Origin: a virus
Taxonomy: Duplodnaviria > Heunggongvirae > Uroviricota > Caudoviricetes
IMG/VR virus record: IMGVR_UViG_3300043119_000318
Direction: 5' to 3' (one strand)
Length of the DNA stretch: 55,844 bases
In this document: piece by piece, positions 51,222-53,392 of the stretch
Position numbering within the stretch: position 1 is the stretch's first letter
Layout: each line of letters begins with the position of its first letter
The notes under the pieces: model-generated
Seen by the model: the letters and a program-made list of their open reading frames with translations, nothing else
Told to the model about the DNA's origin: nothing
Databases searched by the model: none
Made by a program: the position numbers and the translations under genes

Positions 51222-51647
51222 TTAGAACTTTACATTAAGCCCAACAGTTGTCAACATTCCATTATAATCATTGACGCGAGATTGCCCGATAAATCGTTCA
51301 ACACTAGCAACTGCGCTAACGTTCTTAGTGATGGTATAGGTTGCCTTGGCTCCGGCAGTCAAACCATATCCGTTAACACCACCAAGAGTATCCTGGAATA
51401 CTGCAGCGCCACCGGCAGACAGATTAACTGGTCCGACCTTGGTTAGTGCAAAATCCTTACCAACAGCATATCGATTATAGCGACCATCAACATGCGTTGC
51501 AGATGCAGTAAATCCCTTAAAATCAGTAGCTACACGATAGCCAACGCCATCGATTCCAGCATGATCATTAACCGCGGAAACAGTAACTTCCGCAGCAGTT
51601 GCGGCACCAGCCATAACGATCAATGCGATCATTGCAATTTTTTTCAT
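51222..51647 (-). CDS. Putative small outer-membrane beta-barrel protein, 141 aa
   Basis: Signal peptide ending AATA, alternating hydrophobic strands, C-terminal VGLNVKF with terminal Phe; RBS GGAG. Confidence 0.7.
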   Translation of the reverse strand: MKKIAMIALIVMAGAATAAEVTVSAVNDHAGIDGVGYRVATDFKGFTASATHVDGRYNRYAVGKDFALTKVGPVNLSAGGAAVFQDTLGGVNGYGLTAGAKATYTITKNVSAVASVERFIGQSRVNDYNGMLTTVGLNVKF

Positions 51648-51671
51648 AAAATCTCCAAAGTTAATAAAAGT

Positions 51672-51990
51672 GGTAGCTTATTCTGTTACGAGGAAAGCTA
51701 CCGAAACCCTAAGCAGTGTTTAGGCTGCTAATGCGACGTCAAAGACGCTGTCGTTTGCATTTACGTTGTTTTGCTTGATTTACGGTCATCGCCTACCGAG
51801 CAGCCTCGAAAGATACTTTACAGTCAATCGATTCCAGTTCACCCCCATCAAAAACACAGAAGTCCGTAAAGGGGACCTGTCTCTTGTATGTTCGCTAGTT
51901 GCGATCTGAAGCCAACATACCGTCTATCTGTGCTTTTGGTGGAGGTGGGGGCTTCGAAGCCCCGTCTTGTCCGGATTTTTCAATCTCGGT
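51672..51990 (-). ncRNA. ssrA: Circularly permuted (two-piece) tmRNA gene
   Basis: Acceptor piece ends CACCTCC-A-CCA (51947-51937). Coding piece starts GGGGGTG (51846-51840), giving a 7-bp acceptor stem with G3.U70. Tag frame 51758-51720 reads ANDSVFDVALAA*. Inter-piece pairings: TTG/CAA, ATCTTTCGA/TTGAAAAAT, CTCGGT/ACCGAG. Confidence 0.9.
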
Positions 51991-52609
51991 TTACTGCCAT
52001 TAAACGACCCCTGACTAATTTCTCAATCATAGGATCGGATTCTTTTAAATAAAAGTTTACACTTCCATCATTATACCAATGTCTGCCATATGCGTTATTG
52101 GATTTATTTTTATTCCTGTCTTTCCATTCTGTAGTAGTTATCCAACCTGTTGGAATATCCTTCAGTCGTTTTCTGTTAGTTAAATCTATAGCTGTTTCTT
52201 CAACACACCACTTAGAACCATATTGGGAATTTTTTATTCCTTGCTGATGGTTTCTTTCAGACATCGTTCTTTTTTTCTTAGCAATAGCTTCTGGCGTATT
52301 CGCTAATATAGCAACCTGCTTACGAAATTCTTCATTAACTGAAAAGTTATTTGCAGTTTTAATACCAGAAAATGGATTGCCATATTTATCAAGTCTAGCT
52401 TTCGCAGCTTCTGATTGCAGGCGTTTAACTAATTGTTCCTTAGATATTAAGCCAGAGAGACCCTGCCATGCAACGTAGTCTTGCCAGTGCCCATGTTCTT
52501 CAAAAAGTTTTCTATGTGCTTCGGCATGATCTTCAACAGTTAATTCTATTAAATTATCAGAATCATCGGTGCCGCCCATGTGTTTTGGAATTATATGATG
52601 TTTGTGCAT
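51980..52609 (-). CDS. HNH homing endonuclease, 209 aa
   Basis: HKHHIIPKHMGG.D..DNLI.LT.EDHAEAH motif and N..YG..W(Y) repeats in the C-terminal DNA-binding part; own late promoter and RBS AAGGAG. Confidence 0.9.
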   Translation of the reverse strand: MHKHHIIPKHMGGTDDSDNLIELTVEDHAEAHRKLFEEHGHWQDYVAWQGLSGLISKEQLVKRLQSEAAKARLDKYGNPFSGIKTANNFSVNEEFRKQVAILANTPEAIAKKKRTMSERNHQQGIKNSQYGSKWCVEETAIDLTNRKRLKDIPTGWITTTEWKDRNKNKSNNAYGRHWYNDGSVNFYLKESDPMIEKLVRGRLMAVNRD

Positions 52610-52628
52610 GAAATCTCCTTATTATAGT

Positions 52629-52636
52629 TATTTATA
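52629..52636 (-). promoter_or_regulatory. T4-type late promoter TATAAATA of the HNH gene
   Basis: Exact consensus about 20 nt upstream of the HNH ATG. Confidence 0.8.
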
Positions 52637-52649
52637 ATAATTCGATTTT

Positions 52650-52700
52650 CGGAATCGAACCGCCGTCCAGAACACTTTTTGATTCACTTCATACAACCAT
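52650..52700 (-). pseudogene. 5' remnant of a second tmRNA acceptor piece, truncated in the T-stem
   Basis: Minus strand reads GTTGTATGAAGTGAATCAAAAAGTGTTCTG-GAC-GGCGG-TTCGATT-CCG, then breaks off into the HNH leader. Confidence 0.7.
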
Positions 52701-52707
52701 AGTCACT

Positions 52708-52736
52708 ATTATACATCATAAAACCTTAAAAGTCAA
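52708..52736 (-). promoter_or_regulatory. Sigma70-type promoter upstream of the tmRNA remnant/HNH/tmRNA locus
   Basis: TTGACT-17 nt-TATAAT on the minus strand. Confidence 0.85.
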
Positions 52737-53392
52737 ATTTTGTATTGCTTCTTGTACTGAGCGCGAAGTTTACAAAATTCACTAATCCAAGTGTCTCTCT
52801 TCTCCATGAAAAGAAGAGGATTGTCATTATCAACTGCCATCATTACTGCAAGATGACCAACAGGAATTCCTGTTCTTTCTTCAAACGCAACTGCATACGC
52901 TGCAGTTTGCATAAAGTACCCATGAATGTCATCACGGTATTTAACCTTGCTTGAAGTCTTAAAGTCAATGACGCACAACTTACCACGAAACTCTGCAATG
53001 CAATCTACTGTCCCTGCAACTTCCAAGTGATCAGAATAAAGAGGAGTCTCAAGTGCATGTATGTTATCTATCTCAGAAATAAGAGGGATTATGCTGTTAA
53101 ACATATCCTGATCAAACATGTCTGGCTTGACTGGCTTTCCGAGTAGATAATCTTCGCAGAACGAGTGTATACGAGTTCCTCTCCTGGACGCTCGAGAAGA
53201 GATTTTATTCGCTTCTTCATTTCCAACTCGCTTTCGCCACTCCATAATGGCTTGTATACCAAGCAATCCGGTAACGGTAGTAACGGATGGATAGGCTCTA
53301 CCCGTTGGAGTGTTGTAAACACGCGACCCGTTATCGGCAGTTGCACGTGAGATTTGGGGAATATCATGATGTATAAATGTTTTCATTTCCAA
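52733..53392 (-). CDS. PD-(D/E)XK exonuclease (Cas4-like superfamily), 219 aa
   Basis: YPSVTTV, RGT..H..CE.YL, E..LYS....AG.VDCIAE..G.L.VIDFKTS and Q..AYA motifs. Confidence 0.85.
   Translation of the reverse strand: MEMKTFIHHDIPQISRATADNGSRVYNTPTGRAYPSVTTVTGLLGIQAIMEWRKRVGNEEANKISSRASRRGTRIHSFCEDYLLGKPVKPDMFDQDMFNSIIPLISEIDNIHALETPLYSDHLEVAGTVDCIAEFRGKLCVIDFKTSSKVKYRDDIHGYFMQTAAYAVAFEERTGIPVGHLAVMMAVDNDNPLLFMEKRDTWISEFCKLRAQYKKQYKI

Follow-up and report, generated by a model that had tools for sequence, protein, structure and literature searches.

An HNH endonuclease gene joined to a complete tmRNA gene in a T4-like phage: probably a homing cassette at the two-piece tmRNA locus

The window (the whole stretch of 55,844 nt that was analysed) comes from a T4-like phage and carries on its minus strand a sigma70 promoter, a tmRNA remnant, a late-promoter motif, an HNH gene and a complete permuted tmRNA gene, in that order. 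The best explanation, and in our judgement quite a probable one, is a free-standing homing endonuclease that spreads with a linked, probably cleavage-resistant tmRNA allele. We found evidence for this in the architecture of the locus, its recurrence, the presence/absence polymorphism of the HNH gene, the identity of the cassette compared with that of its flanks, the stages of decay and the purifying selection on the HNH gene. The cassette, lodged in a two-piece tmRNA locus, would consist of the HNH gene with its late promoter and of a tmRNA gene that is complete and self-consistent. A preliminary description of this DNA had proposed the order of the elements, and all of them are present at the minus-strand coordinates given below; other loci and contigs carry numbers with the prefix L.

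52733..53392, minus strand: PD-(D/E)XK nuclease gene (Pfam PDDEXK_1), a neighbour conserved across this phage group, to the left of the tmRNA locus
52708..52736, minus strand: sigma70-type promoter TTGACT-17-TATAAT (11/12 consensus matches), once that of the resident tmRNA gene
52650..52701, minus strand: remnant, consisting of the initial ~52 nt of an acceptor piece of the resident type, which breaks off within the 3' strand of the T-stem
52641..52659, minus strand: junction palindrome, seen in the sequence as the T-loop TTCGATT, a 5-nt spacer and the inverted copy AATCGAA
52629..52636, minus strand: T4-type late-promoter motif TATAAATA heading the cassette (motif match and conservation)
52620-52615, minus strand: ribosome-binding site AAGGAG of the HNH gene
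51980..52609, minus strand: HNH homing endonuclease gene, 209 aa (Pfam HNH, PHROG 655)
51999..52073, minus strand: dual-use tail of the HNH ORF, the last ~25-29 codons, retained alone in decayed relatives
52026-52021 and 52004-51999, minus strand: putative promoter TTGAGA N16 TTTAAT, just before the tmRNA
51937..51998, minus strand: acceptor piece of the incoming tmRNA, with a palindromic T-arm GGGGCTTCGAAGCCCC (6-nt loop) and encoded CCA (RF04321 alignment)
51847..51936, minus strand: intervening segment, removed in tmRNA maturation (RF04321 alignment)
51646..51846, minus strand: coding piece with the GGGGGUG acceptor strand and G3.U70, P2 strands, tag ORF and 3' structures (RF04321 and RF01850 alignments)
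51758-51720, minus strand: tag ORF ANDSVFDVALAA plus stop codon, with a degron-like LAA end

The complete permuted tmRNA (51998-51720) scores 127.4 bits with RF04321 (gathering threshold 47) and 93.7 bits with RF01850 (gathering threshold 84), and the covariance model confirms the permuted order, with the acceptor piece ahead of the coding piece. The hallmarks of a tmRNA are present: G3.U70 (GGGGGUG/CACCUCC-A-CCA), encoded CCA and the tag ending in LAA. ARAGORN called no tRNA or tmRNA in the window and ten related loci; since Rfam detects tmRNAs which ARAGORN misses, this is a limitation of the finder. The arrangement would also explain why standard finders miss or mis-annotate such loci, with none found by ARAGORN and orphan 'half tRNAs' appearing in annotations. 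Concerning the pairing of the two pieces, the coding piece had been said to fit the downstream acceptor and not the remnant, and this is borne out: in the Rfam register the duplex with the downstream acceptor reaches -12.7 kcal/mol, whereas that of the remnant with the local coding piece reaches -6.4 kcal/mol, worse than 96% of random acceptor/coding pairs, by a crude measure (RNA duplex energy) which separates the remnant from the cognate acceptor in the window and not in L172 or L198. The ACCGAG/CUCGGU helix proposed earlier is not upheld, as an uncompensated C-to-G change is found in L168 and L044 and the Rfam model assigns the CGGU...ACCG pairing to a hairpin within the coding piece. The canonical T-arm (5-bp stem, 7-nt TPsiC loop, G53-C61) is absent; in its place is GGGGC-UUCGAA-GCCCC, with a 6-nt loop and C53-G61. 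This variant is common to L290/291, L210, L211/213 and L215, and is probably tolerated, since it has been kept in L290/291, L211/213 and L215.

The reading frame of the HNH gene runs into the tmRNA gene: its stop codon (51982-51980) falls 19 nt inside the acceptor piece, and the end of the ORF overlaps the first 19 nt of the tmRNA. The last HNH codons thus double as tmRNA sequence, as the preliminary description had it. They would encode the promoter region of the tmRNA as well as its first 19 nt, so the two genes are not easily separated. The promoter itself is a candidate: TTGAGA-N16-TTTAAT failed a promoter consensus scan, and indirect support comes from the HNH tail being kept by deletions and from its low synonymous change (synonymous divergence from L168 of 0.29 in the tail and 0.69 over the whole ORF).

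The remnant matches positions 3-54 of the 67-position acceptor-piece HMM (nhmmer, 48.5 bits, E 8.5e-13) and terminates at its 3' end in ...GGCGGTTCGATTCCG|. Intact alleles align to it as far as GGTTCGATTCC and diverge beyond. In HNH-less relatives the remnant-type gene is uninterrupted and found at the same position after the same nuclease gene; the window matches these relatives base for base until the T-loop (an example of the resident-type T-arm is GGCGGTTCGATTCCGCC), and the promoter columns TTTGAC and GTATAAT are kept in six of them. Relatives of the neighbouring nuclease are encoded at 80 IMG/VR loci. A complete acceptor piece follows downstream on the same strand in 62 of these, within 120 nt in 25 cases; in those 62 loci no related endonuclease lies in between and no remnant is detectable, L044 being the one decay derivative. 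The HNH gene is therefore polymorphic for presence and absence at one site: it is absent from the 80 nuclease-relative loci (save the decayed L044) and present in L168 and others. Both the idea of an insertion into a resident tmRNA gene and that of an HNH gene replacing this gene with its own allele had been put forward. The remnant is indeed cut in the T-arm, but there is no resident 3' half downstream and both downstream tmRNA pieces are of the incoming type, so the event is a replacement and not a simple insertion; the replacement agrees with the HNH-less relatives, which continue the remnant-type gene at the same place. At the junction, the palindrome is a possible but unproven terminator. 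Its fold in the window (-6.8 kcal/mol, z = -0.04) is no more stable than shuffled sequence, which leaves this function a speculation; the equivalent hairpins of L169 (z = -3.97) and L172 (z = -2.2) are the only two that are significant.

The HNH ORF matches Pfam HNH with 22.5 bits (cut-off 21.4) and PHROG 655, 'homing endonuclease', with E 9e-16. H4/H5, N19, H28 and H32, the catalytic residues of the beta-beta-alpha-metal motif, are invariant across five homologues. A dN/dS of 0.06 (vs L168) demonstrates strong purifying selection at the sequence level, and based on this value and the conserved catalytic residues the enzyme is predicted to be active. The AlphaFold model has a mean pLDDT of 75.7 and a pTM of 0.38; when it was compared with the PDB by Foldseek, no hit reached E <= 0.001, leaving just short local similarities to HNH DNases. 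The GTDB representatives (bacteria and archaea) contain relatives of the N-terminal domain only, and the full-length cassette was not found among them. None of 50,697 GenBank phage records was matched by 51600-53000 in a blastn search. The HNH gene is the sole ORF within the cassette, which contains no integrase. The late-promoter motif TATAAATA is kept upstream of the endonuclease start in L168, L169-171, L198, L209, L212 and L219; it is not enriched across the whole window (8 found vs 6.6 expected), so its weight comes only from this conservation ahead of endonuclease genes.

The layout of a scar, an endonuclease and a complete tmRNA is found in at least 20 IMG/VR and metagenome loci, many of them from uncultured aquatic phages. 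The endonucleases are of the HNH or GIY-YIG type and have one common C-terminal domain. All full-length HNH homologues found adjoin a permuted tmRNA: L168 (83% identity), L169-171/L214, L172, L209-216, L219 and L173-175/L251, the last group having the homologue inside the intervening segment. Enzymes of the GIY-YIG type that share this C-terminal domain are located at the same place in L197, L198, L200 and L202, and those of L198 and L200 are Seg-like (Pfam SegE_GIY-YIG). The 19 unique remnants stop in the T-arm or where it begins (model positions 39-41 or 45-54). Their junctions show at least six different sequences, and 15 of the remnants have an endonuclease domain within 900 nt downstream. 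Not every remnant leads to an endonuclease: in L168, remnant 1 stands ahead of four small ORFs, and L209 and L210 have remnants ahead of other genes. Two remnants are stacked at several loci, and the junction GGACG|CAAGGGT is seen repeatedly in different contexts. These last features would also be expected from shuffling by recombination only, in which the strong tmRNA promoter and the 5' part of the acceptor serve as a repeated substrate for homologous or Campbell-type swaps and the HNH gene is a passenger, as in T4-type promoter-stem-loop cassettes. We consider this unlikely, because the window's remnant and full copy differ strongly as alleles and are not recent duplicates, the break points cluster in the T-arm and not across the homologous 5' region, most remnants have an endonuclease domain downstream, and purifying selection on the HNH gene is strong.

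Looking at the cassette in different backgrounds, the leader, HNH gene, acceptor and intervening segment of L169 and L171 are 94-100% identical (cassette core 99-100%), whereas the remnant is 84% identical, the rest of the coding piece 80%, and the flanks 69% or unalignable. Between the window and L290/L291, the HNH tail, acceptor and intervening segment are 98-99% identical (intervening segment 98.9% with L290), whereas the nuclease proteins are 53% identical, the adjacent genes differ and the flanks of L290 cannot be aligned. Compared with L168, the remnant of the window is 74% identical vs 78-86% for the rest of the cassette. The alignment block of these two begins at the remnant, which thus partly moves with the cassette; a remnant therefore need not be the trace of a recent event at the site. 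Decay is seen in four contigs (L044/L292, L289, L290 and L291), in which only the last 25-29 HNH codons are left; to judge from this scar, they are decay products. In L044, 16 nt of the remnant are fused to the HNH tail at a GAAG microhomology. HNH-less alleles of the downstream type had been named in advance as evidence against homing; such contigs exist, but four carry the scar expected of decay, and in L293 a downstream-type tmRNA directly follows the nuclease gene without any HNH scar, so this allele is able to occur on its own. As a whole, the recurring layout, the several endonuclease lineages and junctions, and a cassette far more conserved than its flanks fit the earlier proposal of intronless homing aimed at ssrA.

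The same comparisons bear on the origin of the two tmRNA copies. Alternatively, the endonuclease might have driven a segmental duplication in which the phage copied its own tmRNA locus, one copy then being truncated and diverging, with no import. This has a model in SegB and tRNA-Tyr of T6: SegB-dependent tandem amplification of tRNA and segB segments is documented (PMC13096335), and stacked remnants do exist. This is given only a slim chance here. The remnant is similar to what HNH-less relatives carry, whereas the complete tmRNA is of a distinct type (…CAAGAC; coding piece ATCGATTGACTG) which is always joined to HNH sequence or an HNH scar, except in L293; the remnant and the complete acceptor also fall in separate clades, and near-identical cassettes are found in diverged backgrounds. 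Another proposal, compatible with the homing cassette and equally improbable, is that the remnant RNA acts as a decoy, an early-promoter transcript pairing with the resident-type coding pieces of rival phages or of a host with a two-piece tmRNA. The promoter is intact and the remnant retains the P2 strands of the common allele type, but remnants evolve faster than the rest of the cassette in both comparisons above (L169/L171 and window/L168) and are lost in the decay derivatives. An HNH gene within a T-loop intron (group I or other), with the remnant spliced to the downstream 3' exon (…CCACCUCCACCA), is barely conceivable: the break does fall in the T-arm, and the T-loop of standard tmRNA genes does harbour group I introns, a part of which carry homing endonuclease genes (PMC11915505), but no Rfam intron family matches 51500-52900 even at E <= 10, in line with the intronless state described earlier, the ribozyme core P3-P9 was not found, just 40 nt separate the remnant from an ORF which runs into the next acceptor piece, splicing would yield an acceptor that does not pair with the coding piece at this locus, where a complete alternative acceptor is present, and the decay derivatives drop the remnant and retain the downstream gene.

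A homing cassette with a linked tmRNA would work as follows. In a mixed infection, the HNH enzyme would cut the T-arm DNA of the HNH-less tmRNA gene of a rival phage; we infer this cut site from the sequences. Recombinational repair would then copy the donor cassette together with its linked tmRNA, with conversion tracts ending on the left in the 5' part of the old acceptor piece and on the right in or beyond the coding piece, so that the promoter and the first ~50 nt of the old gene would be left over as the remnant. The remodelled T-arm would spare the cassette's own tmRNA from cutting, and after fixation the HNH gene would decay, with its tail kept for serving the tmRNA. The linked allele is probably resistant to cleavage through its altered T-arm: a palindromic T-arm is found in 5 of 11 endonuclease-linked unique alleles vs 0 of 100 unlinked ones (Fisher p = 4e-6). 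These counts are inflated, as HNH similarity was used to retrieve many of the loci and some of the unlinked ones were collected with a canonical T-loop pattern. In L168 and L172 the HNH gene lies beside canonical T-loops, so any immunity there must lie elsewhere. Tentatively, and with rather more doubt than belief, one DNA-binding module joined to an HNH or GIY-YIG nuclease may be specialised on the T-arm of two-piece tmRNA genes and drive whole-allele replacement of ssrA between co-infecting phages, with linked alleles escaping via remodelled T-arms (a 6-nt palindromic loop, or loops without TTCGA) that tmRNA function tolerates. If so, nature would have carried out a mutational scan of the tmRNA T-loop at these loci, and the system would act as a gene drive by which tag-peptide variants, too, pass between phages.

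Phage-encoded tmRNA genes would thus be a recurrent battlefield for homing endonucleases, in which the invader's answer to entering an essential structured RNA is not an intron but an entire second copy of the gene, fused to its ORF. This predicts HNH and GIY-YIG enzymes with a common T-arm-binding module, naturally selected non-canonical T-arms, and a promoter embedded in coding sequence. A limited literature search found no published description of an HNH gene with a linked tmRNA and a remnant, and the mobile DNA at the tmRNA gene in the published surveys consulted consists of group I introns and integrase islands only (PMC11915505).

Among known systems, SegB of T4/T6 also belongs to T4-type phages and is a free-standing endonuclease gene by small RNA genes (PMC2330249; PMC13096335). 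As a precedent for the cutting proposed in the window, it cleaves within tRNA genes at a preferred motif, RAWTSGAAC, which is complementary to the T-loop sequence GTTCSAWTY (PMC13096335, PMC2330249), and the flanking RNA genes are co-converted. SegB, however, is a GIY-YIG enzyme in a tRNA gene cluster, whereas the enzyme of the window is an HNH with a two-piece tmRNA gene as its putative target; the window also differs in the truncated target copy left behind and in the endonuclease ORF overlapping the replacement gene. The two-piece tmRNA of the OM43 phage Melnitz, an aquatic T4-like myophage, agrees with that of the window in both gene type and phage type (PMC9004378), and no endonuclease association or gene remnants were reported for it (PMC9004378). 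The group I introns (some LAGLIDADG) in the T-loop of standard tmRNA genes indicate that the same small target is used by mobile DNA with homing endonucleases (PMC11915505); unlike these, the cassette has no ribozyme core and no need of splicing, and the gene is a permuted phage gene restored by a second copy. Islander-class islands and prophages in tRNA/tmRNA genes (PMC4383910) likewise split the gene, restore it with their own copy and leave a displaced fragment, but the cassette has no integrase or att sites, the displaced part is 5' and not 3', the element is ~0.7-1 kb, and the phage is lytic. Finally, the fungal mitochondrial mORFs bring in a foreign gene end, as in atp6 of Allomyces macrogynus and atp6, atp9, cox2 and nad3 of Glomus (PMC3630166). 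They too combine an endonuclease gene with a foreign copy of part of the target, without an intron, the native part being displaced and kept as a diverged unused fragment; correspondingly, the window retains a resident-type remnant beside a foreign-type complete copy. The gene end affected is not the same: mORFs replace the 3' end of a protein gene, with the native 3' end found further downstream, whereas the window has an RNA gene whose 5' fragment has been displaced upstream, all of the gene downstream being of the incoming type. As we read it, the parallel is an analogy of mechanism with mirrored polarity, not homology.

The locus lies on the minus strand of the window, which encodes T4-type baseplate genes, and comprises the following features:

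53392-52733, minus strand: PD-(D/E)XK nuclease gene, the left neighbour, followed by six elements
52736-52708, minus strand: near-consensus sigma70 promoter (TTGACT-17-TATAAT)
52701-52650, minus strand: remnant, ~52 nt from the front of a two-piece tmRNA acceptor piece, located with an acceptor-piece HMM
between remnant and HNH ORF, minus strand: inverted copy of the T-loop, then a T-rich run, TATAAATA (52636-52629) and AAGGAG
52609-51980, minus strand: intact HNH ORF of 209 aa
51998-51720, minus strand: complete circularly permuted tmRNA (Rfam tmRNA_permuted, 127.4 bits; gathering score 47)

The remnant matches positions 3-54 of the 67 positions of the HMM, which derives from 92 phage sequences (48.5 bits, E 8.5e-13), and ends within the 3' strand of the T-stem (…GGCGGTTCGATTCCG|). 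The complete tmRNA, which scores 93.7 bits with the beta_tmRNA model, overlaps the last 19 nt of the HNH ORF; it shows G3.U70 and an encoded CCA, its intervening segment measures 90 nt and its tag is ANDSVFDVALAA. In the Rfam register the coding piece finds its pairing partner in the downstream acceptor (GGCAG/CUGCU and CGG-A-CAA/UUG-A-CUG; duplex -12.7 kcal/mol). The remnant forms no such pairing: at -6.4 kcal/mol it does worse than 96% of acceptor/coding pairs drawn at random. The preliminary description of the locus, an HNH gene with its own tmRNA allele in place of the resident gene, therefore holds, except for its ACCGAG/CUCGGU helix, which shows an uncompensated change in two related loci (L168 and L044) and clashes with a hairpin that is conserved within the coding piece. 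In the window the hairpin at the junction is weak (-6.8 kcal/mol, z = -0.04), in L169 it is strong (z = -3.97). A terminator-like hairpin with a T-run (AGGTCC…GGACTT CTGTGTTTTT) is located in the intervening segment, just 5' of the coding piece (51860-51878, minus strand). ARAGORN reports no permuted phage tmRNAs in the window and ten related loci; Rfam gives them 108-129 bits.

Concerning the state without endonuclease, we used 80 IMG/VR loci, many of them contigs of 160-170 kb, each with a gene for a relative of the neighbouring nuclease (61-74% identity at the amino-acid level). A full acceptor piece is found downstream on the same strand in 62 of the 80, and at most 120 nt away in 25. Neither a related endonuclease between nuclease gene and acceptor piece nor a detectable remnant is found among these loci, L044 being a decay derivative. 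The match between the window and six of them begins at the end of the nuclease gene, continues across the promoter into the acceptor piece and stops precisely with GGTTCGATTCC; from there the relatives go on with …CCCCACCTCCACCA. The T-arm sequence of the remnant is also present within intact genes of a further 87 viral contigs. The arrangement in the window is the derived state.

All full-length homologues of the HNH found in IMG/VR and JGI metagenomes are located at permuted tmRNA. One of them (L168, 83% identity) has the layout of the window with a second remnant further upstream. In L169-171/L214 (58%), L172 (41%), and L209-216 and L219 (50-61%) the HNH terminates at a complete acceptor piece or within it, and one or two remnants lie upstream. 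In L197, L198, L200 and L202 a Seg-like GIY-YIG enzyme (Pfam SegE_GIY-YIG) occupies the place of the HNH and shares its C-terminal domain (…IPxGWIxxTEWKDRxKNKxxNAYGRHWYNDGxKNxYLK…). An opposite-strand HNH adjoins a remnant in L239, L250, L267, L275, L279, L283, L284 and L287. L173-175 and L251 contain an HNH of the window's family within the intervening segment, between the acceptor CCA and the coding-piece GGGG (L173:2874-3700), with its 3' end overlapping the coding piece; the T-loop is TTCATC, and Rfam misses this gene because the intervening segment exceeds 600 nt.

Looking at all loci together, the break points of the 19 unique remnants cluster at the start or in the interior of the T-arm (model positions 39-41 or 45-54); their junctions comprise at least six unrelated sequences. 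An endonuclease domain lies within 900 nt downstream in 15 of the 19, a count biased by the many loci fetched via the HNH. One junction at the T-stem start, GGACG|CAAGGGT(AGGAC/GTCTA)ACCG, recurs in L198, L200, L209, L210 (twice), L212 and L219 with differing downstream contexts. L168 carries two stacked remnants (L168:1754-2958): the second precedes the HNH, and the first, followed by four small ORFs, has the junction TTCGACT|AAGCCTGTTTTACC typical of the opposite-strand HNH type (L267, L275, L279, L283, L284).

Abnormal T-arms are frequent in endonuclease-linked tmRNAs. A perfect palindrome with a 6-nt loop, GGGGCTTCGA(A/T)GCCCC, is found in the window, L290/291, L210, L211/213 and L215. Among unique full acceptor pieces it occurs in 5 of the 11 linked alleles and in none of the 100 unlinked ones (Fisher p = 4e-6, ignoring kinship). 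Other odd T-loops are TTTCGATA (L169-171), TAGCAT(T)AT (L197/198), TATCGTAT (L202) and that of L173. Non-canonical T-arms of any kind total 7/11 linked vs 4/100 unlinked, about half of the unlinked set having come from a canonical T-loop pattern search. L168 and L172 are linked, yet their T-arms are canonical. We infer that the T-arm would be the endonuclease target and the altered linked T-arms would confer immunity. SegB of T4/T6 cuts inside tRNA genes at the motif RAWTSGAAC (PMC2330249; PMC13096335), which is the complement of the T-loop GTTCSAWTY; because of this precedent the T-loop is a plausible target. In the endonuclease-free L038:1477 and L039:2056 the first T of the T-loop is G (GTGCAAAT, GTGCGAAT), as in the L169-171 remnants; these may be resistance alleles.

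Between L169 and L171 the leader is 94%, the HNH 99.2%, and the acceptor piece and intervening segment 100% identical; the remnant falls to 84%, the rest of the coding piece to 80%, and upstream genes to 69% or are unalignable. The near-identical cassettes of L169 and L170 differ in the orientation of the 5-nt spacer within the junction palindrome (TAGGG at L169:2945-2965, CCCTA at L170:530-550), a difference that inversion at a DNA palindrome would produce; the same T-to-G T-loop change is present in both arms (TGCGATT/AATCGCA).

The window and L290/L291 are 98.7% identical in the HNH tail, 98.4% in the acceptor and 98.9% in the intervening segment; their nuclease proteins share just 53% identity, and the neighbouring genes are different. 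The only difference in the remaining tmRNA is a patch in the tag ORF (51758-51720; ANDSVFDVALAA vs ANDEMFALAA in tmRNAs otherwise ~99% identical), which points to a tag peptide that changes fast or has been replaced locally. In L290/L291, L044 (= L292) and L289 only the last 25-29 codons of the HNH are left, and in L044 16 nt of resident-type acceptor are fused to the tail with GAAG microhomology at the joint. L293 has the window-type tmRNA straight after the nuclease gene, without an HNH scar. The tmRNAs at L289:7051-7140 and L293:195-280 lack an encoded CCA and have an intervening segment of only ~6 nt (…CATCTCCAAGACGAGGGGGATG…).

Comparison of the window with L168 gives the HNH a dN/dS of 0.06. 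Over the whole ORF synonymous differences (0.69) approach saturation, but they drop to 0.29 in the final 29 codons, which fits a tail doubling as promoter region and 5' end of the tmRNA and explains the retention of this tail in the deletions. The tail holds TTGAGA-N16-TTTAAT, which, as it fails a strict promoter scan, is called a putative promoter.

Ordinary recombination at repeated promoter and 5' tmRNA sequences probably feeds the stacking of remnants (L168, L210, L219), but neither the T-arm clustering nor the selection acting on the nuclease is explained by it. Remnant and complete copy are of different allele types, which makes a recent self-duplication unlikely. No integrase is present. 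An intron is rejected: group I and all other intron families gave no match in the region, even at E <= 10; a ribozyme core would not fit into flanks this short, and splicing would yield a remnant that misfits the coding piece.

A structure model of the HNH (pLDDT 75.7) gave no Foldseek match in PDB at E <= 0.001, the C-terminal domain included. A limited literature search found no published description of an endonuclease with a replacement two-piece tmRNA: the mobile DNA at tmRNA genes in the 2025 tmRNA database paper consists of group I introns and integrase islands (PMC11915505), and the Melnitz paper presents phage two-piece tmRNA without endonucleases (PMC9004378). The closest systems in mechanism to the proposed homing by an HNH with its own tmRNA allele are the free-standing homing endonucleases of T4-type phages, above all SegB at tRNA genes. 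Mobile endonuclease ORFs of fungal mitochondria likewise bring a foreign gene end, the native end persisting as a fragment (PMC3630166). The window differs from both in that a two-piece tmRNA gene serves as target, the 5' part is displaced as a fragment, the entire downstream gene is replaced, and the replacement RNA gene and its promoter region are overlapped by the endonuclease ORF.
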